NCBI GenBank assembly: GCA_937893835.1
Contig: CALCSS010000024.1
Coordinates: forward strand, 1-62,854
Direction of reading: 5' to 3'
Source of the DNA: an uncultured Fidelibacterota bacterium
GTDB lineage: Bacteria; Fidelibacterota; Marinisomatia; Marinisomatales; UBA1611
Length of the DNA stretch: 62,854 bases
Shown here: positions 26,601 through 55,001 of the stretch, one piece after another
How positions within the stretch are numbered: position 1 is the stretch's first letter
How the letters are laid out: every line of letters starts with the position of its first letter
Translations under genes and position numbers: made by a program
Notes under the pieces: model-generated
The model's database searches: none
Told to the model about the DNA's origin: nothing
Seen by the model: the letters and a program-made list of their open reading frames with translations, nothing else

Positions 26601-27184
26601 AGTTAATGGATGCTGTCATATATGACCTTGATGATAATGATACGTTTGACATTTTCATTGATAAGATATTCATAGGAGCCACTGGAAGCAATCGCTGGAG
26701 AGGCACGGCCTTTGTCATTGACTTTCAACTTACTACTGAGTCAACATTCCCCCAGCCTGGAGATGTATATCAATTGGACTGGAAACGACCATTTTATGAG
26801 ACTGATACAATTCGATTTACCGTAAATGAGAATCAAGGCCTAGACACAGACGCCTTGGCAAGTGGCATGAAGAATATCAAAGTGGTGCCCAATCCATATG
26901 TAATGACGAATATGATGGAAGAGGCTGTCACGAATCCATATCTCAACCAAAGAAGAAAAATATTGTTCACTCATATTCCCGCTGAATGTACGATCAAGAT
27001 TTTCACGGTGAGTGGGGTCTTGGTCGATGAGATAAAAGTTCAGAATGAGCCAGACCAAGGAATTGTTCACTGGGACATGCTTACAAGAGAGAGCCTTGAG
27101 ATTGCTGCAGGTATGTATATATATCATATAGAGTCGAATGTCACAGGTGATTCCAAACTAGGAAAATTTGCGGTGATCAAATGA
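23675..27184 (+). CDS. 1169-aa secreted protein of unknown function with Asp-rich Ca-binding-type loops, Fn3 and a variant CTD-like C-terminus
   Basis: Start overlaps the TBDR stop (TAATG). Signal peptide. 'DNDFDGLTDEKRD' and 'DEDQDWEDGEDLNGDG'. Fn3 'GDGEVILTWDDISD...YKVYRA'. C-terminus 'IKVVPNPYVM...IKIFTVSGVLV...GMYIYHIE...FAVIK' (26873-27184). Confidence 0.8.
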   Translation: MLRSLYYLLSFILFSFFLFGQGKEYEGPEDPAGDPSAEREGYMTGNRVLIYFKNTTEISDWPAVNASRWPNNNDGVKMVDGIGLLVGAKVYIQNDSLESTVDTIPLTELIDIYTQDKHTLHYLQTSYREEMDRDPTGTVEWGFYPVFGYFNEADEYPAVSNIENSWPIGGWPSTGLETKWPGEWNGRFGRGVTYADQECYYVVNDAQDLEYLGAEDNVKYFPRPGKHIGDLKPDVTKQVGEPWGGLGLRVDVRGFQWNNPQARDAIFWEYSIANISDYDLRDVAFGYWVDNGIGNDNSDDIGYFDVEIDMSYSWDINGIGTGGLPTGVMGFAYLESPGLAYDYQDNDFDGLTDEKRDNEPTALVGPTDGITDIDAFLEFYKLELEDLKEHWDADEDQDWEDGEDLNGDGIYQLAEYYGDDIGIDGVGPGELNYDGPDADGSECNHRPDFVEGVGCEPNFNTTDVSESDMVGLTSFRMFPIPSHAASNETEWFKNDQVMWDLVGGDTLEEFEGNISNLVEVFASGPFPLYQGRVERISMSELHSYDPLAGLNSDDHSAPALYELKRIVQVIYEKDYRFAQPPKMPTLTATAGDGEVILTWDDISDTRTRDPFVGNINDFEGYKVYRATDKYMADPEIITDGYGTPMFKKPLYLCDMLDQSPHNPNETNGMVHQCSGFTDYGLVNGTGYNLGNNSGINHIFVDNTVQNGRTYYYAIVAYDYGAPDIGPGISPSENNAVIELDEYENIRSIGKNVAIVVPRQSAAGYIPPSLEMEDIDLLGSGTVTPMIRAQGSLKEGHQYAVTFGVDTIAVVSGYDHGFQYVTDEILVYDVTDSVYLVYTENSTKYIGTNLILNDVVDGIPNYWTLNPVGTIETDVFDGLQIEIDDYLEIPEYRYGNSGWVNGDGIMRVTPSEAEGIKMAWKYQVVFTDDDSAYVGMASTGTVRDELGQSIGTQKIMNPALSFYVQNTSFVDSAGNYELMDAVIYDLDDNDTFDIFIDKIFIGATGSNRWRGTAFVIDFQLTTESTFPQPGDVYQLDWKRPFYETDTIRFTVNENQGLDTDALASGMKNIKVVPNPYVMTNMMEEAVTNPYLNQRRKILFTHIPAECTIKIFTVSGVLVDEIKVQNEPDQGIVHWDMLTRESLEIAAGMYIYHIESNVTGDSKLGKFAVIK

Positions 27185-28236
27185 TGAAGGCCCTACAAAG
27201 AATATTGATTTTTTGTTTTATCATCATCATGCCTTTAGAGGCACAGATGATCAATAGATATGGTACCACCGCTGCAAATTTCCTTGAGATAGGCGTTGGC
27301 AGTGATGGCAGTGCCATGGGTGAGGCTTTTGTTGCGGTGACCAGCGGCATCTCTTCCATTTACTGGAACCCCGCAGGTCTTGCAAACCTTGAGAGGTCAA
27401 CGGTTGCCTTTATGATGCATCCTTGGATCGTTGATATCAATATGCTGTTCACAGGTGGTGCGTTCATTGTCCCGGGAGTCGGGAATATAGGGTTTGGTAT
27501 CACTCAAATGGACTATGGTGAGATGCCTGTGACGACCCTTGAATATCAGGAGGGCACAGGTGAGAACTTTACTGCAAGTGACATGGCCGCCACCTTGACA
27601 TTTTCACGTAAGATCGTCTCCTGGTTTGCATTTGGATCATCACTAAAATACATCAGATCAAATATTTGGCACAGTTCAGCAAATTCCTTTGCAGTCGATC
27701 TTGGCGTACTGGTAAATACAAAATTTTTCTCTTTTACAGGAAATGATAAAGACGGAATGAATATTGGAATGAGTATATCCAATTACGGTACAAGGATGAG
27801 GTTTGATGGTATTGATATCTATCAGCCGGTGGACATATCAGAATACGAGGAAGGCAACTATGGTGATGTCGCAGGTCAATTCAGACCATCGGAATGGGAA
27901 TTACCATTGATCTTTAGGATCGGAATTGCACTGAAACCTATTGTGAACAATTTTTCTAGGGTCACTGTTGCAGTTGATGCGCTACACCCCAATAATAATT
28001 CTGAGTCCATAAACGTTGGTTGTTCGATGGATAACAATATTCCAGGATTTGGTATGTTTAGTTTAAGAGGCGGGGTCAAGGCACTCTATATGGATAGTCC
28101 TCAGTATGGATATACGGGTGGCCTAGGTCTCGAGATGTTCTATATTGGAAATCGATCGCTGTCCATAGACTACGCATATAAGAGCATGGGCATATTGGGA
28201 GATGTTCATGTTTATACTGTGGGTTTTTCTTTCTGA
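27181..28236 (+). CDS. PorV/PorQ-family-like outer-membrane beta-barrel (T9SS accessory type)
   Basis: N-terminus 'YGTTAANFLEIGVGSDGSAMGEAFVAVTSGISSIYWNPAGLANLE' matches my recollection of the PorV/PorQ signature. Beta-rich, ends 'YTVGFSF'. Start overlaps the upstream stop. Confidence 0.65.
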   Translation: MMKALQRILIFCFIIIMPLEAQMINRYGTTAANFLEIGVGSDGSAMGEAFVAVTSGISSIYWNPAGLANLERSTVAFMMHPWIVDINMLFTGGAFIVPGVGNIGFGITQMDYGEMPVTTLEYQEGTGENFTASDMAATLTFSRKIVSWFAFGSSLKYIRSNIWHSSANSFAVDLGVLVNTKFFSFTGNDKDGMNIGMSISNYGTRMRFDGIDIYQPVDISEYEEGNYGDVAGQFRPSEWELPLIFRIGIALKPIVNNFSRVTVAVDALHPNNNSESINVGCSMDNNIPGFGMFSLRGGVKALYMDSPQYGYTGGLGLEMFYIGNRSLSIDYAYKSMGILGDVHVYTVGFSF

Positions 28237-41349: not shown

Positions 41350-42489
41350 ATGAAATCAATTACAACTATAATTCTACTATTTAATTCAATTTTTTATGCC
41401 CTGAATGGACAGACTCAATTTGATGCGGTTGGTAGTGAATTGGCTAAGTTAGAACTCATACTCCAAGAAGCCTCTAGATCTTCACAGAGAGTATTCGTTG
41501 AGGACTTTACAGGTCTCCAATGACCCTATTGCCCTTCAGCAAGTTTTGCGATATCCGAGATGTTAGATACCTATCCAGAGACATTGGTTAACATAGAGTG
41601 GCACAGTCCAAATTTTACTCCAGGGAATTCAGATTTTGATATTTCAGAGTATTCCACAAGGGCAAATCTCTATGGTGTTGGGGGTATTCCTCATACACAA
41701 TGGAATGGAGTTGAAGAAACCATTGGTGGATATGCAAATGGTAATTGGGAACCTTTCATGGGCACATTTATGAATTTGTATAATTATATGATAGGCAATG
41801 AAACCCCATATGAGATTTCCATCAATGGGCAAATTGGATCAGAAGTCTCATATGATGTAATCATATCAATGGATTCGGACCTGAGCAATGCCAATCAAAA
41901 GGTTGATGTGTTTGTGGTAGAGGATAATATCTGGTCATATTGGACTGGTGCAGGTCAATATCATAATGCCAGAAATGTGGCAAGAGATTGGCTTTTATCA
42001 GAAGATCTGGAAATAAATTCTTCGGGAGAATCTCAAACATTCTCAGGATCATTTGATTTGGGAGAAAGTTGGAACTCAGATAGTGTAAAAATAATTGCAA
42101 TAGTTCAAAACTATTCATCAAACCAGATCTATCAAGTTACGCAGGTTAATATTAATGAGATGAATCCAGACATTGATGATGATGGCATCCTGAATCATGA
42201 AGATAATTGTATTGATATCTTTAATCCTGACCAAGAAGACCAAGATTCAGACCTTATAGGTGACGCTTGCGATCCTTGTGATAATCTGATATATGTTTCA
42301 GGAAATCTAAATGGTGATGTGAATAATGACCAACCTGTGATAGACATATTTGATGTTTTGATATTATCAGACTATTTTAATTCTGGTGAGTTAAATGAAT
42401 GCCAAGATCTAATAGTTGATATTAATGACGATGGAAATGTCAATGTGGTTGATCTAATATCGCTATTGCAAATAATCATGGGTAATTAA
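41350..42489 (+). CDS. candidate selenoprotein: signal peptide + Omp28-related/thioredoxin-fold domain with U-x-x-C, thrombospondin-type-3 repeats and dockerin-like C-terminus
   Basis: ATG 41350 ('MKSITTIILLFNSIFYA...VFVEDFTGLQ'), TGA at 41521-41523, then 'PYCPSASFAISEM...' in frame with track ORF 41560-42489. TSP3-like 'DIDDDGILNHEDNCIDIFNPDQEDQDSDLIGDACDPCD'. Dockerin-like 'GNLNGDVNNDQPVIDIFDVLIL...VDINDDGNVNVVDLISLL'. Confidence 0.7.
41521..41523 (+). other. in-frame TGA, candidate selenocysteine codon (FTGLQ-U-PYC-P)
   Basis: Occupies the first-Cys position of the FTGxxCxxCP redox motif. Frame continuity was verified by hand. Confidence 0.65.
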
Positions 42490-42570
42490 AATAGGAAACT
42501 ATGATTATGCAGAATATTATTCTCCAGTTTCAAAAGAGATTCGCTTGACCGATGATGAGTAAGTAGTTCA

Positions 42571-43899
42571 ATGAAAATAGCACTTACTTTATCCATCATG
42601 TTTTTAAATATAATCAGTGCCCAGAGAGTAGTGGGATACTATCCGCAATGGGTTGTGGCTAATCTACAGATCGAGGAAATAGAGTTTGATGTTGTAACCC
42701 ATGTCATCCACTCCTTTGCATGGCCAAATGTGGATGGCAGTATCTCTTCATACGATGGCATGTTTGGTTCAGGGATGAGTGATGTGGTCCATGGGCAAGG
42801 TGCCAAATTTCTTCTAAGTCTAGGAGGATGGGGAAATCATGAGGGCTTTGAGGCGGTTAGTGCAGATGAAGACCTTCGTGAGGGATTCATCTATAACCTT
42901 GCGAGCATATTGACGATCAATGAATATGATGGGGTAGACTTGGATTGGGAATTCCCAGAATCGGAGGCAGATAGAGAGAACCTAAACCTTTTAGTATCAG
43001 AGATGGATTCTATTTTTTATGCTCTTGATCCAGACTGGATGATCACTATGGCTGTCCCTGTTTCAAATTGGTACGGACAGTGGCACGATTTTGATTTTTT
43101 GGTCGATCACGTTGATTTTTTCAATGCCATGACATATGGGACCCATGGTAACTGGTCCAGTCACGCGGGGCATCTCTCGCCTCTTTATCCGTCACCACCT
43201 GGTGATCTGGATGGCTCCTGCCACACCAATATGAACTATCTATCCAATATCCGAGGAGTACCAAGAGATAAAATAAATATGGGAATGCCATTCTGGGGTA
43301 TTAAATGGGAATCACCAAACATCAATGAGCCATTTACGGGAAGCACAGTTGATGTCATGTACTATGACATCCCTCAATTGATAGGTAACGGTTGGACCTA
43401 CCAGTGGGATGATGATGCACTGTGTCCATACCTTATCAAAGACGATAGCACTCGGATCATAACCTATGAGAATCCGCAATCGATAGGATTAAAATGTCAA
43501 TATATTTCAGAGCAAGAACTTGGTGGCGTCATGATCTGGGCACTATCATATGATAAAACTGAAAACGGTCAAGAATTGATACAGTCCATCCAAGAGAATT
43601 ATCTAATTAATTTTCCAGATGAATCTTACTCAATACCAAATGAGATATCTTTGAGTGCTTATCCCAATCCATTCAACCCCTCCTGCAACATAGATATAGA
43701 CCTAGAACATGATCTGTTTGTCCAAATAATGGTAAATGACCTTCTTGGTCACGAGGTCAAATTGTTAAATAATAAAGTACTTCGAAAAGGAAGCCATCAG
43801 TTCTCATGGGAGGCTAGAGACCACCCCAATGGAATTTATTTCATTACTACCAAGCAGAATAAGTTCATTCAAACCAGGAAGATCACCTTACTTAAATAA
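42571..43899 (+). CDS. GH18 chitinase-like glycoside hydrolase + T9SS CTD
   Basis: 'VVGYYPQW', 'LLSLGGWG', catalytic 'DGVDLDWEFP', 'GGVMIWALSYD'. CTD at 43657-43899. Confidence 0.85.
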   Translation: MKIALTLSIMFLNIISAQRVVGYYPQWVVANLQIEEIEFDVVTHVIHSFAWPNVDGSISSYDGMFGSGMSDVVHGQGAKFLLSLGGWGNHEGFEAVSADEDLREGFIYNLASILTINEYDGVDLDWEFPESEADRENLNLLVSEMDSIFYALDPDWMITMAVPVSNWYGQWHDFDFLVDHVDFFNAMTYGTHGNWSSHAGHLSPLYPSPPGDLDGSCHTNMNYLSNIRGVPRDKINMGMPFWGIKWESPNINEPFTGSTVDVMYYDIPQLIGNGWTYQWDDDALCPYLIKDDSTRIITYENPQSIGLKCQYISEQELGGVMIWALSYDKTENGQELIQSIQENYLINFPDESYSIPNEISLSAYPNPFNPSCNIDIDLEHDLFVQIMVNDLLGHEVKLLNNKVLRKGSHQFSWEARDHPNGIYFITTKQNKFIQTRKITLLK

Positions 43900-43948
43900 C
43901 ACTCTCTTCATGGGTTTTTTGTTTGTGGGATGATAGGTAGATTTATGA

Positions 43949-44575
43949 ATGATAAAGTGCATCAAATTACTCCTATGGTCCTGTAGGCCTATAAAAAAAA
44001 CATTTGAGATCAGCATAGGGGTAGCCTTTTGTATCCTGGTTCATGGTTGCGAAGAAGCAAGTACAGATCTTGATGATATTACAGATCATGGTGTCGTTAT
44101 AAATGAGATCAATTACAACTCATCGGATGCTTTTGACCCAGATGATTGGGTGGAGATCTATAATGGAAACAGTGATGTTATGGACCTGAGTTCTTGGGTC
44201 TTGAAGGATGATGATGACGATCATTTTTTTACCTTGCCTTCAAATACATTTTTGCAACCATATCAATATCTAATCCTTTGCAGAGATACCGTGAAATTCA
44301 CAGCTTTGTTTCCTGAAGTTATTTCGTATTATGGTGGTATGGATTTTGGTCTTGGAGGAGGAGGGGATCATGTCAGGTTTTTTGATGCTAATGGTTCAAT
44401 GGTAGATATGGTGGAATACGATGATAATGATCCATGGCCAACACTGGCAGATGGTAGCGGACCCACTATCGAGTTGAGACACCCATCATTGGATAATGCA
44501 CTATGGGAAAATTGGTCTGCATCCAATGGAAATGGAACACCTGGGGTGATCAATAGCACCTACGATGATGAATGA
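43949..44575 (+). CDS. stand-alone lamin-tail-domain (LTD) lipoprotein, paralog of the C-terminal LTD of the CotH protein
   Basis: 'VVINEINYNSSDAFDPDDWVEIYNGNSDVMDLSSWVLKDDDDDHFF...FGLGGGGDHVRFFDANG...DGSGPTIEL', about half identical by eye to 10004-13591 residues 'LVINEINYNSSDDHESGDWIEVYNPG...'. Lipobox-like 'LVHGC'. Confidence 0.7.
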   Translation: MIKCIKLLLWSCRPIKKTFEISIGVAFCILVHGCEEASTDLDDITDHGVVINEINYNSSDAFDPDDWVEIYNGNSDVMDLSSWVLKDDDDDHFFTLPSNTFLQPYQYLILCRDTVKFTALFPEVISYYGGMDFGLGGGGDHVRFFDANGSMVDMVEYDDNDPWPTLADGSGPTIELRHPSLDNALWENWSASNGNGTPGVINSTYDDE

Positions 44576-44706
44576 ATTAGATTCACCATCCTTAAAAAAC
44601 ATCAATAATTAGTAAATTGATGTCATTCATTGGTAGTTTTGTGTTAGAAGTTTTATATAAAGATTTGATTTAACCTTCTTACAAAATATAAAATAACAGG
44701 AAAAAA

Positions 44707-45279
44707 ATGGAATTCTCAACTGAACTATTTAATCTAGCCTTCAGATTTGGATTTAATCTATCGATCGCTTACGTGATCATAAAACTGATATATCATCGAG
44801 ATCATAATAATAACGATTTTGTTTTTACATATTTCATGTTCAATTCATTGATCTTCTTTTTTGCGTACATATTGGGGAATATGGACATTAATATTGGCTT
44901 TGCTTTTGGATTATTTGCTGTGTTTGCCATTCTTCGATATAGGACCGACCCGATTCCCATCAAAGAAATGACCTATCTATTTGTTGTGATTACCATAGGT
45001 GTCATAAATGCCCTAGGTCAAAATGAAGTATCCTATGGCGAATTATTATTTACAAATGTTACACTGGTTCTATTAACCTATTTTCTTGAAAATTATTGGC
45101 AAAATAATTTACTTCGTCGTCGTACCGTGGAATATGAGATCATTGAGAACATAAAACCCGAAAACCATGAAAAATTACTTCTTGACCTGAAAGATAGAAC
45201 AGGACTATCCATTGTACATTTCGAGATTCGAAGGGTCTTTTTGGATAAGGTCAATATTCGAATTTATTCCACAGATTGA
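44707..45279 (+). CDS. DUF4956-like integral membrane protein
   Basis: 190 aa with an N-terminal multi-helix hydrophobic part and a charged C-terminal tail. This resembles my recollection of DUF4956 proteins, which usually accompany VTC and CotH genes. Confidence 0.55.
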   Translation: MEFSTELFNLAFRFGFNLSIAYVIIKLIYHRDHNNNDFVFTYFMFNSLIFFFAYILGNMDINIGFAFGLFAVFAILRYRTDPIPIKEMTYLFVVITIGVINALGQNEVSYGELLFTNVTLVLLTYFLENYWQNNLLRRRTVEYEIIENIKPENHEKLLLDLKDRTGLSIVHFEIRRVFLDKVNIRIYSTD

Positions 45280-45282
45280 ATA

Positions 45283-45978
45283 ATGAGGAAAACAGATTCT
45301 TTGGTATTAATGATATTAATTAAATACCTGAATTTGTTTATCAAAGGTCCTATGTTGATTGGTCGGTACTGTTTATTCATCTTATTTTTACAATGTGCAT
45401 TTGCAGCGGATGAAACTGAGTCATGGAATAGCATAGGATTTGAAAAAAACTTGCCATACTCACTTGAACTTGAATTTGATCAGGAGATTCGGTTAATAGA
45501 TCAACTATCTACAGTGAAACAGACCATCTCTGAGATATCACTATCCTATAAGATCCTGGATGGAGTTAGAATTTTCATTCCCTTGCGATATGCCATATTT
45601 GAGGATAAGGTCAAACAGCGATTAAGTTTTGGTGGGTCATATAAATATGGTTGGGATCCTGTAAGTCTCAAGTATCGGATAAAGTTACAAAGGACATATG
45701 AGAATGGAGATTCTCCTGAGGATCTGATTAGAAACAGAATCACGATTGAGTATAAGTTAAGTAAAAAGATCGAACCCTATGTGTCTGGGGAATTTTTTCA
45801 TCTTTACAATATAGATCGATTTCAGTATAATGAAAATAGGATTTCCTTTGGTTTCAATGTTGATCTTCCAAAAAAGAGATCTATAAAGATTTTCTATACA
45901 CGGAAGAAAGAAGATATTGATAGTTCTAAGCCAGATCAGATCAATATATTTGGTCTAGCCTATGATCTTAAATGGTAA
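45283..45978 (+). CDS. small outer-membrane beta-barrel-like protein (DUF2490-like)
   Basis: Signal peptide ending 'CAFAADE'. Alternating-polarity strands. C-terminal 'FGLAYDLKW'. Confidence 0.45.
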   Translation: MRKTDSLVLMILIKYLNLFIKGPMLIGRYCLFILFLQCAFAADETESWNSIGFEKNLPYSLELEFDQEIRLIDQLSTVKQTISEISLSYKILDGVRIFIPLRYAIFEDKVKQRLSFGGSYKYGWDPVSLKYRIKLQRTYENGDSPEDLIRNRITIEYKLSKKIEPYVSGEFFHLYNIDRFQYNENRISFGFNVDLPKKRSIKIFYTRKKEDIDSSKPDQINIFGLAYDLKW

Positions 45979-46006
45979 TGGGGAAACCTGAGGAAGAGGA
46001 ATCACT

Positions 46007-48238
46007 ATGAAGTACATAATAAAACAAATATTTTACACTTTTCTCTTTACTACATGTTTGTCAGCTCAATGGTCAACTGACTCCTCTTCACCTCAGTTTC
46101 TTGGGAGTGGTGTCCAACCCCAAATAGCATCGACATCAGATGGCGGCACTTACATTACATGGATCACCGATGGTAGTTATCATGTGTATATCCAACGAAT
46201 GGATGAATTGGGAGTAGCCCAGTTTGGTGATGCGGGGCTTTTGGTCAGCGATAATGATAATGCATCTTGGATCGCGGTCTACCATCTTAATATTGCAATC
46301 GATGAAAATGATAATGCTATCATATCGACCGTTGACCAAAGAACCGGAAATTGGGAGGTCTATGCATGGAAGGTATCCCCAGAGGGTCTTATGTTGTGGG
46401 GCGAGGATGGGATCACGATCACGAATTCTAGTACAAGCAATATGTCTCCAAGGCTTACGATCCTTGAAGATAATAGTTTGATAATTACATGTAGTCATAA
46501 TGATGGTGAAATTCTATTCCAACATGTGTCATCCGAGGGAGACTTGTTATGGGGTGATGGTATAATAAAGCAGGATGACACTAGAAATCTTGTCTCTCCT
46601 CAGTCCATTGTTGATGAGAATGGCGATATTGTCTTCCAATGGTTAAGACAATCCTCTGGATGGCCAATCTATAGTGAAATCTTTGTCCAAAAATATGATC
46701 TGAATGGTGAACCGCTATGGGCAGAACCTATTTTGATCGTGGGACCAACTTCGTTTCCAATGGGAAATTGGTCACAACAATTACTTTCTGCTCCTGATGG
46801 AGGAAGTTTTATTTCATGGACAGAAATGTCAGGCAATGTACAAACTGCAATAGTTGAATCGATTACGGATGAGGGCTCAACACTTTGGAATGGCGGAATG
46901 GAACTCTCCGCAAACTCGAATAATTTTAGGATGTCACCAATGCTGGTAATTTCTGATGATTCTTACGAGATGATGGCTGTTTGGAGAGAGGCAAATGGTA
47001 GCCAGTCCCAGCGAGGAATATTTGCGCAGCGTGTAGATAGTACTGGAAACAGACTGTGGGGAGAAAATGGTGTGGCTGTTGTAGACATGAATGGTAGTTA
47101 TGACTATCTAGATGTCTCAGTATCAGAATTTGATGATGAGATCATTGTTACTTATTTAGAGCAAAGTTCTAATATGAATGGCGATGTTTTCTCTAAAAGA
47201 TTGGATTCATTGGGCAATGGGACATGGGAAGATGGAACGGTGGTCATAACCAGTTCAAATGATCCAAAATCAGACCTGAAGGCCGAAAAAGGATCGAATT
47301 GTTTATTTATCTCTTGGTCAGAGAATGGATCGATATTTGCTCATTGTTTGAGGGATGATGGTAGCCTGGGCCCTCCTGATATAATCCCATCAGTGGATTG
47401 CGACAGTGGTTATGTTGAGATCGATGGATTATGTTTTTATGAGGATGACCTAGCTGTTCTACAAAATATGATCGATAATAGCTATGAAAGTGGGATCGAT
47501 CTGGGCTGTGAGGAAGGCGATGCTTACTGTGGATCACCTAATCCTTATATGGACGATCCAGACTCATGGTTCTGGAAGACCATTGATGGGGAAGAATATA
47601 ATTTTGCTGATGGAGATAGCATTGTAGAGCCTTTGGAATTAGGTGTTCAAGAATGGGTAGACGGGAGATTGACAAGTATCATGTGTGGTGCTTATATCTA
47701 TTGCCAATTATCGGGTCCAATACCATCAATCATCAATGAATTGACTGAAATAGACCAGTTTAGGTTTGAGGGTAATTATTTTTCTGATTATATACCGGAA
47801 ACCATATGTGAACTGAATATTGATTATGAAGATGATCTATCATTTGATATTTCTTGGAATTTATTGTGCCCACCCTATCCTACCTGTATTGAGGAAAATA
47901 TAGGAGAGCAGGATATTTCAGACTGTGAGCAAGTTTCTACGATCGATGGGACAATACCCAATCCCTTTGAGTTAGATAATGCCTATCCCAATCCCTTTAA
48001 CCCTATGACAAGATTGGGATATTATCTTCCAAAGGAATCTTTTGTTGAAATAACAATTTATGATATGTTAGGCAATTCAATAAGTCATTTGGTAAATGAA
48101 AAACAAACATTTGGTCATAGATCAGTGGATTGGAATGCTAAAAATGATCAGGGTCAACCAGTATCAGCAGGAGTTTACTTATATAGAATTCAAGCAGGTG
48201 ACTTTATCCAAACAAAAAAGATGATACTCTTAAAATAG
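46007..48238 (+). CDS. T9SS-sorted protein: seven-repeat propeller-like N-terminal region + Cys-rich LRR-like region + CTD
   Basis: About seven repeats carrying 'G..LWG..G(I/V)', e.g. 'EGLMLWGEDGITI', 'EGDLLWGDGII', 'NGEPLWAEPILI', 'TGNRLWGENGVAV'. 'IPETICEL...NLLCPPYPTC'. CTD at 47981-48238. Confidence 0.7.
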   Translation: MKYIIKQIFYTFLFTTCLSAQWSTDSSSPQFLGSGVQPQIASTSDGGTYITWITDGSYHVYIQRMDELGVAQFGDAGLLVSDNDNASWIAVYHLNIAIDENDNAIISTVDQRTGNWEVYAWKVSPEGLMLWGEDGITITNSSTSNMSPRLTILEDNSLIITCSHNDGEILFQHVSSEGDLLWGDGIIKQDDTRNLVSPQSIVDENGDIVFQWLRQSSGWPIYSEIFVQKYDLNGEPLWAEPILIVGPTSFPMGNWSQQLLSAPDGGSFISWTEMSGNVQTAIVESITDEGSTLWNGGMELSANSNNFRMSPMLVISDDSYEMMAVWREANGSQSQRGIFAQRVDSTGNRLWGENGVAVVDMNGSYDYLDVSVSEFDDEIIVTYLEQSSNMNGDVFSKRLDSLGNGTWEDGTVVITSSNDPKSDLKAEKGSNCLFISWSENGSIFAHCLRDDGSLGPPDIIPSVDCDSGYVEIDGLCFYEDDLAVLQNMIDNSYESGIDLGCEEGDAYCGSPNPYMDDPDSWFWKTIDGEEYNFADGDSIVEPLELGVQEWVDGRLTSIMCGAYIYCQLSGPIPSIINELTEIDQFRFEGNYFSDYIPETICELNIDYEDDLSFDISWNLLCPPYPTCIEENIGEQDISDCEQVSTIDGTIPNPFELDNAYPNPFNPMTRLGYYLPKESFVEITIYDMLGNSISHLVNEKQTFGHRSVDWNAKNDQGQPVSAGVYLYRIQAGDFIQTKKMILLK

Positions 48239-48292
48239 GTTAACACCCAATCGACTCCCTGCTATTTTTAATTAGAAGAATCTGCTAGAGTC

Positions 48293-49597
48293 TCATAATC
48301 CAATGATCATCTCAGCCAAAGTATCTATGTCACTATGATCAATGTTTCTGTCTCTATTTACATCAAATCTGTAAAGGTGATAAATGTCTAGGTTAGACCC
48401 TTCTTCAGCAAAGTGGTCAGCTATGATGCTTAGATCAATAATATCAACCTTATCATCCAGATTTGTATCACCAAGAATTAAATTTGTATCGAATTGCCAT
48501 TCATGCTTTGTGACCCTATAGCAATAGACAGGGTCTGTATATTTTAAGTCTAGAACGATATTCTTATCCTGATCCACTTCTGTGACCACCCCGATTTGCT
48601 CCTCTAATCTTCCCCAATTGATTAGAGTATTGTTGTTCGGCAATCTTTGAGCACTTCCCATTGCAAGCCCAACATAACCTTCGGGATGTGAGAAGTCCCA
48701 AACCAGATTTGCAGTCATATTAGTTTCATCCAACTCATATTCTACAGCTCTAGATATTGGTGGTTCGTGGTCATTCCCATTATCGAAAAGTAATAGATTT
48801 CCATTCTCCAGTCTTCTTACATCATGTTGTCTACTGAACCCATTATAATCATCATTTATAATGGTAAACTGATTATTTGCTCCACCCAATATCCAAATGA
48901 CCTGGCCGTTGTCTCGATCTAATTTAATTACCTCACTGCTTATCCTATTTGATATGATTATATTGGAATCCTCATCAATCTCTATGCTATTACCATGCAT
49001 CCACATAATGAAACCTGCTGACAGGTTAATATAATTGTAGTTGGTAATATTCAAATGGTCCCACGCATTCCATTCAAAGATCAGATTCTTATCTGAATCA
49101 AATTCTTGAATGATGAGGGTTACGACCGTTGCATTGGTATTGCCACCTGGGTCAATTGTGCTTAGATCGACCGATATTGAATCATATGCTTGTATTAAGT
49201 ATCCACCATTCTGTAAGAGTTGTATGTCATGAAAGTCTGTATAATACCCGTTAGCACATGTCAGTGTGTCAATCTCGGTCATATATTCGTTCATTATTAT
49301 CCATGCATTATTCTCATGGTCAAAATAAGATATTCTATCTTGTTGAACCTTGAGGTCAAGTCCCAAGGGTCCTGAATTCACTACCCAGACCGCATCCAAC
49401 ATCGAATCAATAATTGCCATATATCTTGGCATTGTACCTGTAGTTGGAGAGAGATGAGCCAGATTATGTATGAATATGTTTGCTGGATAGGGATCATTAT
49501 TCACAATGATCTCGAAGTCCAAATAGTTCACCTCTTGTGATAATACTAAACAAGTAGAAACAAAAAAAGTTATAATGATGTGTTTTACAAGATTCAT
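48293..49597 (-). CDS. arylsulfotransferase (ASST)-like beta-propeller protein with dockerin-like C-terminus
   Basis: 'FSRQHDVRRLENGNLLLFDNGN' and 'ISNRISSEVIKLDRDNGQVIW' are typical of the ASST fold. Dockerin-like 'GDTNLDDKVDIIDLSII...FDVNRDRNIDHSDIDTLAEMI'. Confidence 0.65.
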   Translation of the reverse strand: MNLVKHIIITFFVSTCLVLSQEVNYLDFEIIVNNDPYPANIFIHNLAHLSPTTGTMPRYMAIIDSMLDAVWVVNSGPLGLDLKVQQDRISYFDHENNAWIIMNEYMTEIDTLTCANGYYTDFHDIQLLQNGGYLIQAYDSISVDLSTIDPGGNTNATVVTLIIQEFDSDKNLIFEWNAWDHLNITNYNYINLSAGFIMWMHGNSIEIDEDSNIIISNRISSEVIKLDRDNGQVIWILGGANNQFTIINDDYNGFSRQHDVRRLENGNLLLFDNGNDHEPPISRAVEYELDETNMTANLVWDFSHPEGYVGLAMGSAQRLPNNNTLINWGRLEEQIGVVTEVDQDKNIVLDLKYTDPVYCYRVTKHEWQFDTNLILGDTNLDDKVDIIDLSIIADHFAEEGSNLDIYHLYRFDVNRDRNIDHSDIDTLAEMIIGL

Positions 49598-49715
49598 AAG
49601 GATTTACATATCCAAATAAGAAAAAAAATATGACATTCACCAGAAATTTCTTCATGTTTATATTTATACGACCATATTAATATCCTACTATGATAAGAAA
49701 ACCCGATACTCGATC

Positions 49716-51770
49716 ATGAAGAAAGGGATCCTTCTGCTATTGCCTATCTTATGCATAGCAAAAAATCTTTCTCTTGAACATCGAATCAATCCACCTAATA
49801 GAGAGTTGATGGACGTAGAGATAGTTAATGACATTATGATCATACCAGGTAATTTGGATGGTTATGACTTCTACGATATCTCTGACCCTACCGATCCAAC
49901 CATAATTGCCAATCTTGAGATCCCAATGGGCAATGGCAATCGTTCTTTGCCAGGGATATGGGTATCAGCCACGGATAGCGTGGCCTATTTTACTTGCAGA
50001 ACAAAGCAAGAGGGCTCTGCCATCGTTGATTTTTCTGATCCAAATAATCCCGTCCATATTGGGGCACTTTCCCTAAGTGGAACAGATATGAATGACCCTT
50101 CCTTTGAGGGCTCTGATATTAGTGGCAACCTATTGGCCGTTGCCATGCACGAGGATGGTGTCATATTCTATGATATATCAGATCCATTAGAACCTGATCT
50201 TATCTTGCAAAGACCATGTGAAAATGCTTGGACCGTTGCCTTTATTGATTCAAATCATTATGTGATAGGAAATGGTGATCACGGAATCATTATTGAAGAA
50301 TTTTATTGTCTAGAAGATACTTGTGAAAGTAGTTCCTTTCCAACGGAGGGTGCGGTCAAGGATCTGGCAATAAAAGATCATTTGCTTTTTGTGGCTGAAG
50401 GTTCTGATGGAATCTCAATTTACGATATCTTAGATATTGATCAACCGATTCTGTTAGACCGATATGATACTCCAGGACTATCAAACAAGATTGCTTTGTT
50501 TGGTACGAATAAGATTGCTGTATCCGATTGGTTGGATGTCAAGATCCTTGAGTGGACAGGTACTGGATTGGAACTGGTCGGTTACAAAAGTACGGGCAAA
50601 CGTACAATGGCAATTGGTGCAAGGGACAGTATAATATATTCTGCTGAGTGGCAGCATCTACAAACATTTTCATTTGGTGATATTCAAGAAGGAGACTTGG
50701 ACGTGGGTTCCTGGGACATATCCTATCCCAATCTTGAGATTGGTCAGAGTGATACATTTGATCTTTTGTTTGAGAATAATGGTCAATCACCACTTGGACT
50801 CTATCCACCTTTTATCAATCATGCTGATTTTCAATCAATTAATTTTCCAGAGTATCTTGGTCCTGGAGATACTAGTATTGCCCAGGTCATTTATAACAGG
50901 TCGAGCCAAAATGCATCAGGGGTGATGCAGATCACATCAAGTGACCCGGATGAATCACAAATCGATATTCTTTTAGTAGGGAACTATGAGGGGGGAATTG
51001 TAGGCTTGCCCGCACCTGCGTTTACCTTGCCTATTGCTGCGAATGGATCTGGAGATTTTCTCCTAAGTGACTATTTAGGTCAGGTAGTGGTGGTAGCATT
51101 CTTTGCCCCTGGATGACCTGTTTGCATTCCGGAGTTATCGGATCTAGAAACATCCATTTGGCAGACCTATCCTCAGGATAGCGTAATGCTTGTGGGAATC
51201 ACATCTGTGAGCCAAAACCAGATAGAGCAATTCATTGAGGAAACGGGGGTCACATATCCAATTCTACAAGATGAATCTAGCAGCGGTCTTGGAGGCTTTG
51301 GTGGTGTGGTCTATGATGACTATTACATTCCTAATCAGGGATCTCCCTATCCTAGGGATTTCATTATCGATCAAAATGGAATATTGGTATATGCCAATAA
51401 TGAGGTGGACACTGATTATATGCTTTTTATCATAAATGAGCTTCTTACAGAGGAAGATATTGTTGGCGTTCAAAATGATGCGTATCCAATTAATGGGTTC
51501 AATTTCCTTTCAGTATATCCCAATCCATTTAATCCTATCACTACGATTAGATATGATTTACATAAAGATGATTTTGTAACTATCACGGTCTATGATATGC
51601 TTGGTAATATTGTTAGTACTCTCGTAAACCAGAATCAAAATTCAGGTTATAGGACAGTACAATGGAATGCTACAAATGATCAAGGACAATTAGTCTCTGC
51701 CGGAGTATATCTATATAGCATAGAAGTGGAAGAGTTCAGGCAGACCAAGAAAATGATACTCCTTAAATAG
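49716..51770 (+). CDS. candidate selenoprotein: LVIVD-repeat beta-propeller + Ig-like domain + TlpA/ResA-type thioredoxin domain with U-x-x-C + T9SS CTD
   Basis: Track ORFs 49716-51116 and 51186-51770 are in the same frame, separated only by TGA 51114-51116 and 23 open codons. Thioredoxin block 'FLLSDYLGQVVVVAFFAPG-U-PVC-IPELSDLE...VTYPILQDE...PRDFIIDQNGILVY'. LVIVD-type 'YDFYDISDPTDPTIIANL'. CTD at 51513-51770. Confidence 0.75.
51114..51116 (+). other. in-frame TGA, candidate selenocysteine codon (FFAPG-U-PVC-IPEL)
   Basis: Occupies the first-Cys position of the WCxxC block of TlpA/AhpC-TSA-type thioredoxin folds. Confidence 0.7.
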
Positions 51771-51893: not shown

Positions 51894-52214
51894 ATGAGAA
51901 GGATGCTAAAAACGTTCATTACATTTGGATTATCAATCCTATTCTTATCAGTAACATTACATATTGATCTGCATCATCATGAACATTACGATGGATACAG
52001 CATATGTGATATTGATTGTGATGATGAAAAACATCATTCTATAGATCACAAATGTGAAAAATGTCTTAATAAGACCAATAGACTGATTGGTCAAGAATGT
52101 ATTGATTCTTCATTAGATGAGTATGGAGCATCACTTCATTTTTTAAATGAAAGTTTTAATAGTAGCCATAAATTTTATGGCGCATATGGTCGTCCTCCCC
52201 CAAGACTCCTTTAG
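51894..52214 (+). CDS. small His/Cys-rich membrane-anchored protein (putative metal-binding)
   Basis: N-terminal hydrophobic helix, then 'HIDLHHHEHYDGYSICDIDCDDEKHHSIDHKCEKC'. Confidence 0.45.
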   Translation: MRRMLKTFITFGLSILFLSVTLHIDLHHHEHYDGYSICDIDCDDEKHHSIDHKCEKCLNKTNRLIGQECIDSSLDEYGASLHFLNESFNSSHKFYGAYGRPPPRLL

Positions 52215-52234
52215 TTAAAAACACTATTTTAATC

Positions 52235-52264
52235 ACATCACTTATGAAAAATTTTCAGTGATGT
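52235..52264. promoter_or_regulatory. inverted repeat ACATCACT-N14-AGTGATGT between the two His-rich genes
   Basis: 8-bp perfect arms. The loop contains the GAAAAATTTTC sub-palindrome. Lies 34 nt upstream of the 52298 start. The stem length alone is near chance level. Confidence 0.3.
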
Positions 52265-52297
52265 TCAACTAGTAGATAATTTTTTAAGGAGCATTTT

Positions 52298-52795
52298 ATG
52301 CAATTTTTATTTTTACACCCTATCAGGGTGCGCGTAGTTTTTTTATTAACTAGCATGATATTATTTACAATCAGCTGTGAAGACGATGACCACGATCATG
52401 ACGAAGAACATATAGATGCAGATGGTTTTGTTTTAGAAGATGAAAGTGGAACTGAGGTTTATAGAGAGTTTGAAGGAGCAATGACCGGAACAGTTACATT
52501 GACAGTTGGTGATACTCTTGAACTTACCGTGCACTTCCTTGACCATGAAGCAAATGAGATTGAGCATGAAGAAGAAGAACATGAAGATGAGTTAAAAGTC
52601 TCTGAAAACGATGCCAACATTGCAGTGGTAGAAGTTGAATCCCATGAAGATGGTGAAGAAGATGAAGAACACCATGAGATGGCACTTCATGTAATTGGAG
52701 TCAGCACAGGAACAACGAGCTTTAAGCTTCAATTGATGCATGAGGATCACGCGGACTATACATCAACAAACAACGTTCCGGTAACGATAAATTAA
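52298..52795 (+). CDS. His/Asp/Glu-rich lipoprotein (putative periplasmic or surface metal-binding protein)
   Basis: AAGGAG RBS. Lipobox 'FTISC'. 'DDDHDHDEEHID', 'HFLDHEANEIEHEEEEHEDE', 'ESHEDGEEDEEHHEMALH', 'LMHEDHADY'. Confidence 0.6.
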   Translation: MQFLFLHPIRVRVVFLLTSMILFTISCEDDDHDHDEEHIDADGFVLEDESGTEVYREFEGAMTGTVTLTVGDTLELTVHFLDHEANEIEHEEEEHEDELKVSENDANIAVVEVESHEDGEEDEEHHEMALHVIGVSTGTTSFKLQLMHEDHADYTSTNNVPVTIN

Positions 52796-55001
52796 TAAAT
52801 ACCACATAATACTATGTTTCCTGGGGCTCTTATGGTCCCAGGAAACATCAGTTTCAGGTCTCATTATGAATGATGATGACAAGACACCTGTACACGGAGC
52901 TAATGTTTACATTAAAGAACTTAGTATTGGAGCCGTATCCCAAGTAGATGGCCGTTTCATTTTAGATAATGTCTCACTTGGAAAAATATCAATATCGATT
53001 TCTATGATTGGTTTTAAGAATCTAAACAAATCATATATTTTAGATACAAAGAATACTGATTTGGGAAGTTTTTACCTTTCAAGAGATACAATAAAAATTG
53101 AAGAAATAGTTGTTGACGCACACCATGAGCTTAGACCTCATGGATTCATTTCTAACATTAATGTTGCTGGTGATCAATACCACAACATGGTTAAGTCTTC
53201 TCTAGCCTTAACTCTAGAGCAGCAAACGGGGCTATCCATCAGATCCATGGGCCAAGGTGTAACCCAACCGGTGTTAAGAGGATATTCAGGTGATAGATTT
53301 TTACTTACAGAAAATGGTATTACTGCTGGAGATCTATCAAATACATCCATTGACCACACGATTAGTATGGACATGGCAGCTTATAATAATATCAGAATCA
53401 TCCGTGGACCAGAGGCCTTGCTATTCGGATCCAATACGATTGGCGGAGTAATTGATGTTTCTCGAAAAAATAATACGGAAGCTAGGTTTAATAAATTACA
53501 TGTTAGAAATATTTCAGGAATGGAATCCTCTAATGAAAGTTTTTTTGGAAATTTTATTGCATATCTTCCCTATAAAGAAAATCATCAATTTGGTTTTTCG
53601 CTTTTAAGTAGAACCGCGGGTGATCAAAAATCTCCAGAGTCATCAATAGAAAATACTGCACTATCCAACAGAGAGTTAACAGGAAGCTATTCCTATTTTG
53701 GTAAGAATGATAGATCAACAATCTCATATGAACAAATAGAAATGGATTATGGTATCCCAGGAAGTTTGGAGGGACATATAGATGGTGTAGATATTAAAAT
53801 GAATAAAAGGACCCTAAAACACACATACCATAAAGATATTTCTTTTCTAGGTTTTCAAACCCTTGATATAGATCAACGCTTCATAGATTATGGACATACT
53901 GAAAATGAAAAAGACAACCCTAATCCTTCTGTGATCATGGACCAGGAAATTTTTTCTTTACAAAGCAAGATTACTGGGAATAAACTAACCGCAGGTTCAT
54001 TACTTCAATATCGAAACTTTGAAGCAGGGGGGTTTTATTGGACGCCAGATACCAAGGAAATGAGCGTTGCTCTTTTTGGATTAATTGAACGTGAAATAAA
54101 TGATTTTATTTTACAATTTTCATCAAGGGCAGAATATTTATTGGTGCTTCCAGATACAGAATTATTATATCTTTCCAATATAAATGAAAGTCTAGTTAAG
54201 AAACGAAAATTCCAAGTATTTTCAGCGGCATTAGGAGTTATCCGAGATTGGAAGAATTGGGAACTTTCACTTGGCACCATGCTTACTCAAAGAGCACCAG
54301 GAATTGAGGATCTTTTTTCTGATGGTCCACATCTTGGTACATATGCATATGAAATTGGGCAACCTAAATTGATGTTAGAAAAAACAATTGGTCTTGAGGC
54401 ATCACTTAGGCGTCAAATGGGAAAAATCGACATAAGATTCACAGGTTATCAAAACTATAGTCCAAATTTTCATATTAGCACAAAAATGGGAGATGGCTAT
54501 GAACCTGGTGCAGATTGGATCGAATGGGGAAGTGGATCAAGTGGATGGCTATACAAATACCAAATGAACGGTTTCAGAGCGCGTATCTATGGTTTTGAAT
54601 CCGAGTTGGAGTATGAACTATTTAAGATGATAAACCTGTATGGTAGTGCTTCATTTACTAGAGGAGAAAACATTTCAGAGAATAGACCACTTGCATACAT
54701 GCCACCAGATAAAATCATCTTTTCAACAGAACTAGATTTGCAACCATTTTCTATAACACTGCAACTAAAAAAGGTTTTACCACAAACAAGGTTAGGTGAA
54801 TTCGAAACCAAAACTGAGGGATATTTTATCGCTGATTTAAATGGCAGTCTCACAATCCACCGATCTCAGATAACTCACAAGATCATTTTTCAGATAGATA
54901 ATATTTTCAATCAGGTATATTATAATCACCTTTCAAGTATAAAACGAATCATGCCTGAAAAAGGACAAAGTTTCAGCATGCAATATCGCTTAGTGTTTTA
55001 A
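52791..55001 (+). CDS. TonB-dependent receptor (CarboxypepD_reg + plug + barrel); true start upstream of the track's ATG 52866 and non-canonical
   Basis: The frame is open from 52791 and encodes '(I)NKYHIILCFLGLLWSQETSVSGLI' before 'MNDDDKTPVHGANVYIKE...'. That is the signal peptide and first strand seen in the other three TBDRs, but there is no ATG/GTG/TTG in this stretch. Plug 'PVLRGYSGDRFLLTENGI'. Ends 'MQYRLVF'. Confidence 0.75.
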   Translation: MNKYHIILCFLGLLWSQETSVSGLIMNDDDKTPVHGANVYIKELSIGAVSQVDGRFILDNVSLGKISISISMIGFKNLNKSYILDTKNTDLGSFYLSRDTIKIEEIVVDAHHELRPHGFISNINVAGDQYHNMVKSSLALTLEQQTGLSIRSMGQGVTQPVLRGYSGDRFLLTENGITAGDLSNTSIDHTISMDMAAYNNIRIIRGPEALLFGSNTIGGVIDVSRKNNTEARFNKLHVRNISGMESSNESFFGNFIAYLPYKENHQFGFSLLSRTAGDQKSPESSIENTALSNRELTGSYSYFGKNDRSTISYEQIEMDYGIPGSLEGHIDGVDIKMNKRTLKHTYHKDISFLGFQTLDIDQRFIDYGHTENEKDNPNPSVIMDQEIFSLQSKITGNKLTAGSLLQYRNFEAGGFYWTPDTKEMSVALFGLIEREINDFILQFSSRAEYLLVLPDTELLYLSNINESLVKKRKFQVFSAALGVIRDWKNWELSLGTMLTQRAPGIEDLFSDGPHLGTYAYEIGQPKLMLEKTIGLEASLRRQMGKIDIRFTGYQNYSPNFHISTKMGDGYEPGADWIEWGSGSSGWLYKYQMNGFRARIYGFESELEYELFKMINLYGSASFTRGENISENRPLAYMPPDKIIFSTELDLQPFSITLQLKKVLPQTRLGEFETKTEGYFIADLNGSLTIHRSQITHKIIFQIDNIFNQVYYNHLSSIKRIMPEKGQSFSMQYRLVF
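52814..52848 (+). promoter_or_regulatory. perfect 12-bp hairpin ATGTTTCCTGGG-N11-CCCAGGAAACAT inside the TBDR signal-peptide coding region
   Basis: Read directly from the sequence. No T-tract on either side, so it is not a canonical terminator. A 12-bp perfect stem is well beyond chance for this window. Confidence 0.6.

Follow-up and report, generated by a model that had tools for sequence, protein, structure and literature searches.

Two predicted exported UxxC selenoproteins of Marinimicrobia (SAR406) encoded within 10 kb of each other in a glycan-utilization region

Introduction

"Hypothetical protein GOS_C" was listed by Zhang & Gladyshev in 2008 (PLoS Genet, PMC2398784) as a set of 74 sequences with a thioredoxin-like fold and a UxxC motif, U being selenocysteine (Sec); a SECIS-like (selenocysteine insertion sequence) element was noted, and no function, taxon or localization was given. 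The selenoproteins known as Prx-like 1, or Prx-like thiol:disulfide oxidoreductases, belong to pfam00578 and also carry UxxC (PMC2398784, PMC9312934). A third relevant protein, HBP35 of Porphyromonas gingivalis, binds hemin and has a CxxC thioredoxin motif, both cysteines of which are needed for thioredoxin activity in vitro; its export by the type IX secretion system (T9SS) and its anchoring at the cell surface have been shown experimentally (PMC2907840, PMC3120885). Here two genes, A and B, are described from contig CALCSS010000024.1 of GenBank assembly GCA_937893835.1 (positions 1 to 62,854, the whole stretch of 62,854 nucleotides being referred to as the window), each of which has an in-frame TGA codon at the first position of a CxxC-type motif in a thioredoxin-fold domain.

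The explanation that best accounts for all observations is that both are genuine Marinimicrobia selenoproteins, exported and acting by the surface mechanism proposed below, and this explanation is considered highly probable as a whole. The selenoprotein identity of the two genes is not new, since both families were listed in 2008, and as selenoprotein genes they are textbook cases that represent no new kind of biology. An earlier note on this DNA, which saw in them an unusual niche for Sec, overestimated their novelty: both families were already published as selenoproteins and gene A is covered by an NCBIfam model. The sole fresh angle is their likely display at the cell surface. Nothing relevant on Sec in Marinimicrobia or on an Omp28 selenoprotein was found in the literature beyond two papers of the Zhang group, nor was any work found that links the T9SS with selenoproteins.

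Results and Discussion

Two reading frames with a single in-frame TGA

Translation of both frames bore out the presence of two UxxC genes with in-frame TGA codons within 10 kb (Table 1). Gene A is a single frame of 379 codons and gene B a single frame of 684 codons, and in each the TGA is the sole interruption, in the contexts VFVEDFTGLQ-U-PYCPSASFAI and VVVVAFFAPG-U-PVCIPELSD, respectively. A six-frame scan of the window for in-frame TGA codons with at least 40 open codons on each side yielded no credible case besides these two. The TGA at 45277 was rejected as a recoding candidate, being an ordinary stop after which the ATG of the next gene follows in frame, and the remaining hits are situated in non-coding frames.

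The annotated genes of the window comprise about 20,000 codons and merely 7 [C/U]xxC sites, which gives a probability of about 1e-7 that two random nonsense mutations in these genes would both fall on the first position of such a site; the earlier argument that chance placement on CxxC is very unlikely is therefore sound. Equally correct was the statement that TGA is a normal stop here, which excludes an alternative code. The ORF (open reading frame) ends cited for it (23675-27184, 31442/31487-32572 and 44707-45279) are right, and TGA is the stop codon in 12 of the 39 long ORFs of the window.

Table 1. Coordinates of genes A and B, their predicted features, and related elements (window positions unless a locus is named)
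Feature	Position	Strand	Basis or remark
Gene A, Omp28-related selenoprotein (predicted), GOS_C family, Sec58	41350..42489	+	NF045500 match
Gene A, putative Sec-type signal peptide MKSITTIILLFNSIFYALNGQ	41350..41412	+	By eye: Lys2, then ~15 hydrophobic residues
Gene A, thioredoxin-fold domain, ~residues 40-140	41467..41769	+	AlphaFold2 (AF2) model, Foldseek
Gene A, UGA as Sec58, first position of U-P-Y-C	41521..41523	+	Conserved TGA, Cys homologues
Gene A, SECIS-like hairpin GCAA[GUU]UUGC	41539..41549	+	15 nt 3' of UGA, window copy
Gene A, Omp28-like beta-sandwich, residues 148-270	41791..42159	+	Pfam PF11551, Foldseek
Gene A, thrombospondin type-3 (TSP3) Ca-binding repeat (272-311) and dockerin type I (322-372)	42163..42465	+	PDB/Pfam matches
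Gene B, propeller-redoxin-CTD (C-terminal sorting domain) selenoprotein (predicted), 684 codons including Sec467	49716..51770	+	"Prx-like 1" set
Gene B, putative signal peptide MKKGILLLLPILCIAK	49716..49763	+	By eye
Gene B, beta-propeller with LVIVD (~18-320) and Ig-like sandwich (~328-421)	49767..50978 (approximate)	+	Pfam, AF2
Gene B, TlpA/ResA-like thioredoxin-fold domain, residues 429-566	51000..51413	+	AhpC-TSA, Redoxin
Gene B, UGA as Sec467, first position of U-P-V-C	51114..51116	+	TGA in 29/29 copies
Gene B, SECIS-like hairpin UCCGG[AGUUA]UCGGA	51128..51142	+	11 nt 3' of UGA; -4.0 kcal/mol
Gene B, T9SS type A CTD, residues 600-681	51513..51758	+	Downstream of the Sec codon
PorV/PorQ-family T9SS outer-membrane protein	27181..28236	+	NF033709, 189.5 bits vs cut-off 90
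Third UxxC family	L017:13886-15385		TGA at 14090
Third UxxC family, other copies	L005:11342, L006:13904, L007:8955, L008:11331, L009:16565, L011:15009, L012:13323, L013:7649, L014:3974, L019:4518, L020:13859		
Tandem arrays of Omp28-like paralogues	L005:3441-11031, L006:6044-13585, L007:2363-8597, L008:3504-10964, L009:10001-16251, L011:8426-14696		

Conservation of the TGA and cysteine homologues

In order to compare the codon across relatives, distinct copies of both genes were collected. TGA occupies the position in 37/37 gene A copies and in all 29 gene B copies. The former come from the window, a single metagenome contig and 21 species-level genomes, the latter from ocean metagenomes. Orthologues of gene A in the 21 Marinimicrobia species-level genomes are 50-73% identical over residues 1-377, and residues 1-684 of gene B are covered at 55-80% identity in about 40 metagenome loci (tblastn). 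In both cases the protein is conserved on both sides of the TGA and through the codon. All named relatives of gene A are metagenome-assembled genomes (MAGs) or a single-cell genome of Candidatus Marinimicrobia/Neomarinimicrobiota (SAR406), by which the marine FCB bacterium inferred from the letters alone can be placed in Marinimicrobia/SAR406. Among the genomes matched are the single-cell genome AG-404-J18 (CACEUX01), TMED46 (NHCZ02), Co_bin_502_strict (CBFIBM01, a 417-kb contig), SP3971 (PBCV01) and MED586 (NZIX01).

More distant homologues have cysteine where genes A and B have TGA. The first Cys of a CxxC motif aligns with Sec58 of gene A in P0250 (WCPYC), P0252 (CTYC), P0254 (CPYC), P0256 (CYYC), P0260 (CTFC) and P0285 (CPYC), while the U of gene B lies opposite the first Cys of WCxxC in the solved structures 3KCM, 2LS5 and StoA 3ERW. 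Together with the hairpins described below, this pattern upholds the reading of TGA as a Sec codon and not as nonsense. A gene A paralogue of 495 aa (P0241) appears to be a redox-dead offshoot: DQYS stands in place of UPYC, leaving no redox motif, and a Lamin Tail Domain (LTD) has been gained ahead of the dockerin.

Nearly all database protein homologues, from 83% down to 38% identity, are cut exactly at the TGA, with hits to gene A beginning directly after it and hits to gene B stopping at ...FFAPG. Gene callers split gene B into genes of 466 aa and 194 aa, as in ENA contig k141_42049 (L086). A few "full-length" entries have W at the Sec position: P0002 (L003:104-1234), P0121 (L001:71-2134), P0123, P0151-P0153, P0173 and P0300. 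The underlying DNA is TGA in these entries, which rules out TGA-to-TGG mutants, and the W is an artefact of a gene caller using code 4 on short contigs. The two genes thus have some value for annotation. With callers that either split such genes or, on short contigs, read UGA as Trp, the errors are predictable and affect thousands of database entries from a phylum that is abundant in the ocean.

SECIS-like hairpins and a third UxxC family

A short hairpin follows the TGA in both families. In the gene A family it consists of a 5-bp stem, CGCGA[GUU]UCGCG, located 14 nt 3' of the UGA, and two of its pairs show compensatory change in alignment A1 (CG 25, UA 9 and UG 2 in one; GC 34 and AU 3 in the other). 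Its covariation score exceeded that of 500/500 shuffles and of every slid control. The hairpin of gene B, UCCGG[AGUUR]UCGGA, is invariant across the copies of alignment A2: the codons that form it, CCG-GAG-TTR-TCG, have a synonymous entropy of 0 (the last loop base excepted), and fourfold codons flanking it have 1.6-1.9 bits. Two of these codons are uncommon in the window, CCG making up 9% of Pro codons and TCG 8% of Ser codons. The AGUU loop is common to both hairpins. About 0.9 Mb was scanned on both strands for an in-frame TGA with ORFs on both sides and an AGUUN loop closed by a stem of 4 bp or more; of the matches, 41 belonged to gene B, 37 to gene A and 1 to another site.

Related Marinimicrobia genomes, though not the window, encode a third family of secreted UxxC proteins (Table 1). 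Its members combine a signal peptide and a redoxin domain, the motif of which is LFTSW-U-PSC-QxEAP, with a TSP3 repeat, a region resembling a dockerin, and a T9SS CTD. The TGA was found in 12/12 copies and is accompanied by a hairpin, NNGGA[GGC]UCCNN, with three compensatory pairs. No NCBIfam model matches this family above its cut-off, and it is represented among the 2008 GOS "Prx-like 1" reads. Paralogues of the Omp28-like selenoprotein itself are found in tandem in other Marinimicrobia genomes, 3-4 per array and 40-72% identical to gene A; every array copy has both the TGA and the hairpin, and the window holds a single copy. Because the classic three-part signature recurs in three separate gene families of the lineage, the sequence-based case for Sec decoding of genes A and B is very strong.

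Domain architecture and predicted export

Gene A matches the NCBIfam model NF045500 (Omp28_seleno) with 560.2 bits against a cut-off of 200, residues 22-377 aligning with model positions 15-376 of 377. The Pfam Omp28 model (PF11551) scores 34.6 bits, slightly below its cut-off of 34.9 (E 2.2e-8), and weak matches were obtained to TIGR00411/TIGR02187 and to thioredoxin 1FO5. In a PDB sequence search the TSP3 region matched repeats of thrombospondin-2 and COMP. The N-termini of gene A homologues follow the pattern MKK, hydrophobic stretch, S-F-S/A-Q.

The AF2 model of the gene A orthologue P0002 has a mean pLDDT of 80.8, with values above 90 in the thioredoxin domain, which is followed by a beta-sandwich. 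Its top PDB match in Foldseek is HBP35 (5Y1A; E 1.3e-12, probability 1.00, 253 columns), with a TM score of 0.54 normalized by target length; thioredoxins and the P. gingivalis Omp28 domain 2R2C come next. P0256, one of the Cys homologues, has a T9SS CTD in place of the dockerin, as HBP35 does, and the two C-terminal modules therefore appear to be interchangeable in the gene A family.

At L050:14170-14748 and at nine other gene B loci a small protein is encoded that scores 22.4 bits on Cohesin, below the cut-off of 24.1. Proteins of this type may be the partners of dockerin-bearing Marinimicrobia proteins, including gene A.

In the AF2 model of P0121, an orthologue of gene B, a beta-propeller and an Ig-like sandwich are seen together with a thioredoxin fold and a sandwich that corresponds to the CTD. 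Its Foldseek matches are propellers of a generic kind, among which the T9SS surface protein PorZ (5M11) ranks first. The redox domain scores 67 bits on AhpC-TSA (pfam00578; cut-off 26, E 1.9e-18, residues 429-559) and E 5.8e-14 on Redoxin in Pfam, and the CTD exceeds the cut-offs of both Por_Secre_tail (PF18962, 35.9 bits vs 27) and TIGR04183 (42.9 vs 23). The model places a low-confidence helix at residues 2-11, in the N-terminal region. Por_Secre_tail domains occur in eight proteins of the window and dockerins in three. The T9SS core genes sprA/sov, porK-N and porU were not seen, no search aimed at them having been made.

The two redox proteins had been called independent and unrelated. They share no pairwise sequence similarity and are independent in that sense; "unrelated" is too strong, because both redox domains have the thioredoxin fold. 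The claim that both carry surface-targeting modules holds at the level of domains: the T9SS CTD of gene B is above cut-off and a PorV/PorQ-family gene lies in the window, while the dockerin of gene A is borderline and the signal peptides were recognized by eye.

Proposed mechanism

In both genes the UGA would encode the nucleophilic residue at the N-terminal position of the U-x-x-C motif of a thioredoxin-fold domain. It would be read as Sec through the in-frame hairpin 11-15 nt downstream, whose stem, 4-5 bp in length and in some copies as long as 7 bp, carries an AGUU-type apical loop and which presumably acts as a bacterial SECIS that recruits SelB with Sec-tRNA(Sec). Both proteins would leave the cytoplasm by the Sec translocon via their N-terminal signal peptides. 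For the gene B product, the type IX system is the most likely route across the outer membrane, after which the protein would be surface-anchored or released. Since the CTD lies after the UGA, a UGA-terminated product of gene B would be without its sorting domain, and the sole sortable form would be the Sec-containing read-through product. The Ca-binding TSP repeat and dockerin of gene A suggest attachment to a cohesin-type envelope partner. The chemistry is likely to be selenylsulfide/thiol exchange on extracytoplasmic substrates, possibly disulfide reduction, oxidation or isomerization, or the capture of thiophilic ligands.

If this is true, T9SS display on SAR406 would take Sec chemistry outside the cell, out of reach of a thioredoxin reductase, and would tie the trace-selenium economy of the dark ocean to the handling of external substrates by SAR406. 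A broader idea, tentative and somewhat short of likely, is that of a Marinimicrobia extracellular selenoproteome, in which at least three secreted UxxC thioredoxin-fold families would be held on or beyond the outer membrane via CTDs or dockerins, their delivery to the surface being set by selenium supply and the efficiency of SelB, given that the sorting domain comes after the UGA.

A number of observations weigh against the proposed mechanism or parts of it. The gene A hairpin of the window is the weakest of its family, with 4 bp and -1.9 kcal/mol against -6.2 for the consensus. It is the only 1 of 37 with an unpaired outer position (A.G, from a UCA Ser codon), and a competing hairpin, UUGC[CCUUCA]GCAA, is possible at 41530-41549; Sec insertion may as a result be less efficient in this strain, or the weakness may be due to a polymorphism or a sequencing error. 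No covariation was found in the gene B hairpin, the signal there being one of conservation. Single-sequence minimum free energy folding 3' of both UGAs was no better than shuffles (z +0.7 to -0.7), and Rfam gave no match, either in the whole window at gathering thresholds or around the gene B UGA at a permissive E-value; the evidence for the hairpins is accordingly comparative.

As regards the machinery, neither the window nor 0.86 Mb of related loci yielded a selA, selB or selD gene in tblastn searches with E. coli SelA, SelB and SelD, and ARAGORN found no tRNA-Sec in the window or in 45 related loci; these loci are flanks of the same neighborhood and as such uninformative. A 2016 survey reported three SAR406 single-cell genomes with an "orphan" SelD only (PMC5029168). 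On the side of export, the N-termini (MKK or MKS, then 12-15 hydrophobic residues) were judged to be signal peptides by eye. The Dockerin_1 match of gene A is borderline (23.2 bits, cut-off 22.9), further dockerin matches in PDB are weak (E 0.02-0.4), and no cohesin partner for it was identified. Surface display of both proteins is proposed from their domains and the analogy with HBP35 alone, and selenium content, localization and activity are all things that we infer.

Alternative explanations

The alternative to be taken most seriously accepts both genes as real selenoproteins and keeps their products in the periplasm, like TlpA, ResA and DsbE, instead of on the surface; it is thought unlikely, with a chance that is still appreciable. 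TlpA/ResA-like domains are normally periplasmic and receive electrons from DsbD/CcdA, whereas no extracellular electron donor is known. Gene A is without a T9SS CTD and its dockerin is marginal, and a Cys-type TlpA-like redoxin is the conserved downstream neighbor of its orthologues. What speaks for the surface is that the CTD of gene B is clearly above curated cut-offs, as are those of seven other window proteins, that a PorV/PorQ-family gene is present, and that HBP35, the closest fold to gene A, has been located on the cell surface by experiment (PMC3120885).

It is very improbable that the hairpin directs the insertion of Cys or another residue, for instance by a SelB-like factor with Cys-tRNA or under selenium scarcity. 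TGT or TGC would be a far cheaper way to encode Cys, yet neither is found in any copy, and the retention of a UGA over some 40-80% protein divergence, coupled in three families with a hairpin of its own, is what classically marks a selenoprotein. Both NCBI curators and Zhang & Gladyshev class the families as selenoproteins. In favor of such recoding are the low selenium of the open ocean, the lack of Sec machinery in the window and the flanking related loci, and the report of SAR406 single-cell genomes with SelD and no other selenium-trait genes, although these genomes are incomplete and an orphan SelD is thus weak evidence.

Very improbable, too, is that UGA is a true stop and that each locus makes two products. 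Gene A would then yield a peptide of 57 aa and a protein of 309 aa from Met71, and gene B a propeller protein of 466 aa that lacks a sorting signal, along with a C-terminal fragment of 194 aa that has its own initiation. Downstream ATG codons do exist at 41560 and 51186 and databases hold the truncated forms; moreover, some termination at Sec codons is normal, and truncated products probably occur as well. However, the stretch from TGA to ATG is the best conserved (PYCPSASFAI; PVC[IS]PELSD[FL]ETSIWQ) and completes the thioredoxin active site, and its conservation is explained without a ribosome-binding context. The downstream ATG is not conserved, with orthologues beginning at differing residues, and the downstream fragments would have secretion or anchoring modules yet no signal peptide.

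A genome-wide use of UGA as a sense codon (code 4 or 25: Trp or Gly) has a negligible probability: the database entries with W that might suggest it (P0002, P0121, P0123, P0151-P0153) are TGA in the DNA and reflect the choice of code 4 by the gene caller, TGA serves as a stop in the window with well-defined protein ends, and there are two in-frame TGAs in about 20,000 codons. That the TGAs are nonsense mutations or assembly errors and both genes pseudogenes, as their splitting by gene callers and the degraded window hairpin of gene A might suggest, is equally negligible given TGA at the same position in 66/66 distinct copies from independent assemblies, MAGs and a single-cell genome, strong amino-acid conservation on both sides, RNA-level constraint directly 3' of the codon and the low chance probability given above.

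Genomic context

The earlier note had pointed to the glycan-degrading and propeller genes that adjoin A and B. They do so in the window; relatives do not keep this proximity, and no functional weight is given to it. The linkage of genes A and B themselves (10 kb) is absent from all related loci examined, and a functional unit of the two genes, or of either with the neighboring glycan-degrading genes, was dropped for this reason.

Directly downstream of gene A the window has a GH18 enzyme with a T9SS CTD (42571-43899). At 18 loci with gene A orthologues the place is taken by a Cys-type TlpA/ResA-like redoxin, such as L017:11282-11890 (Redoxin 85 bits, AhpC-TSA 78 bits), and in some of these loci a third-family selenoprotein follows it. 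In other loci gene B is typically preceded by a gene for a protein-L-isoaspartate O-methyltransferase (29 loci) and followed by one for a DUF5683 protein (22 loci). In the window, an arylsulfotransferase-like beta-propeller protein with a C-terminal dockerin is encoded at 48293-49597 (-), divergently from gene B. By analogy with DsbL/AssT it was considered as a substrate of gene B and dropped, the pairing being kept in L025 alone, the closest relative.

Directly 3' of gene B, at 51894-52795, lie two small secreted-looking proteins that match no family, one rich in His, Cys and Asp (CDIDCDDEKHH...CEKC) and the other in His, Glu and Asp (DDDHDHDEEH..., EEEEHEDE); their composition suggests that they bind metal. 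They are followed by a TonB-dependent receptor at 52866-55001.

The window as a whole is a glycan-utilization region with three GH16, a GH5, a GH3, a GH18 and four TonB-dependent receptors. Its beta-glucan/glycan cluster (10004-37047) contains the three GH16 enzymes, a GH5 with CBM6, the GH3, a LacI-type regulator, a sodium:solute symporter, TonB-dependent receptors and a CotH protein with an LTD, most of the enzymes having T9SS sorting domains. The PorV/PorQ gene also belongs to this cluster and adjoins two large proteins without a family match, at 23675-27184 (1169 aa) and 28243-29712 (489 aa).

Comparison with known systems

The hairpins resemble the bacterial SECIS of the E. coli fdhF type in being located inside the coding region, 11-15 nt after the UGA. 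As in the bSECISearch consensus, the apical loop begins with G and then U. The consensus distance from UGA to loop is 16-37 nt, and the 16-19 nt found in genes A and B fall within it. The Marinimicrobia elements differ in their very short stems (4-5 bp core) and in their loop, which is AGUU(N), or AGGCU in the third family.

Residues 429-566 of gene B align with TlpA, ResA, StoA and DsbE, known extracytoplasmic proteins whose active site occupies the same WCxxC position. Gene B is below the equivalog cut-offs of these proteins (27.6 bits vs 170 for ResA), and in its family the Trp before the motif is replaced by Gly or Asn, followed by U. Its redoxin domain is also fused to a propeller and a T9SS CTD and not to a membrane anchor, and no cytochrome-maturation or DsbD/CcdA genes were seen in the context of gene B.

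With HBP35, gene A is predicted from the orthologue model to share the thioredoxin domain and the beta-sandwich fold. A PDB sequence search gave no 5Y1A hit at E <= 1. Unlike HBP35, gene A has Sec in place of Cys and ends in a TSP3 repeat and a dockerin, without a CTD; it resembles HBP35 and is not classed as a member of that family.

The family of gene B is represented in the "#Prx-like 1" block of Dataset S1 of the 2008 study by reads such as FFSPGUPVCSPELSD and FFAPNUPVCSPELSDM (PMC2398784). Its redoxin domain is likewise of the AhpC-TSA type with U at the first Cys of CxxC. Prx-like 1 is defined by a single redox domain, whereas gene B is multi-modular, with a signal peptide, LVIVD propeller, Ig-like domain, redoxin and CTD. 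No curated NCBIfam model covers it, and no description of the propeller-CTD fusion was found in the searchable literature.

Gene A belongs to the same family as GOS_C and the NF045500 "Omp28-related selenoprotein", with no essential difference. The GOS_C reads contain ...VFVEDFTGLNUPYCPSASFAI...GIPHTQWNG..., matching gene A, and under "#Hypothetical protein GOS_C" in Dataset S2 the strings PYCPSASF, FTGLNUPYC and GIPHTQWNG occur 22, 17 and 14 times, respectively. What the present analysis adds to the description of GOS_C is the assignment to Marinimicrobia, the occurrence of tandem arrays in some genomes, a fold like that of HBP35, a C-terminal tail made up of a TSP3 repeat and a dockerin, and the unusual weakness of the hairpin in the window copy.

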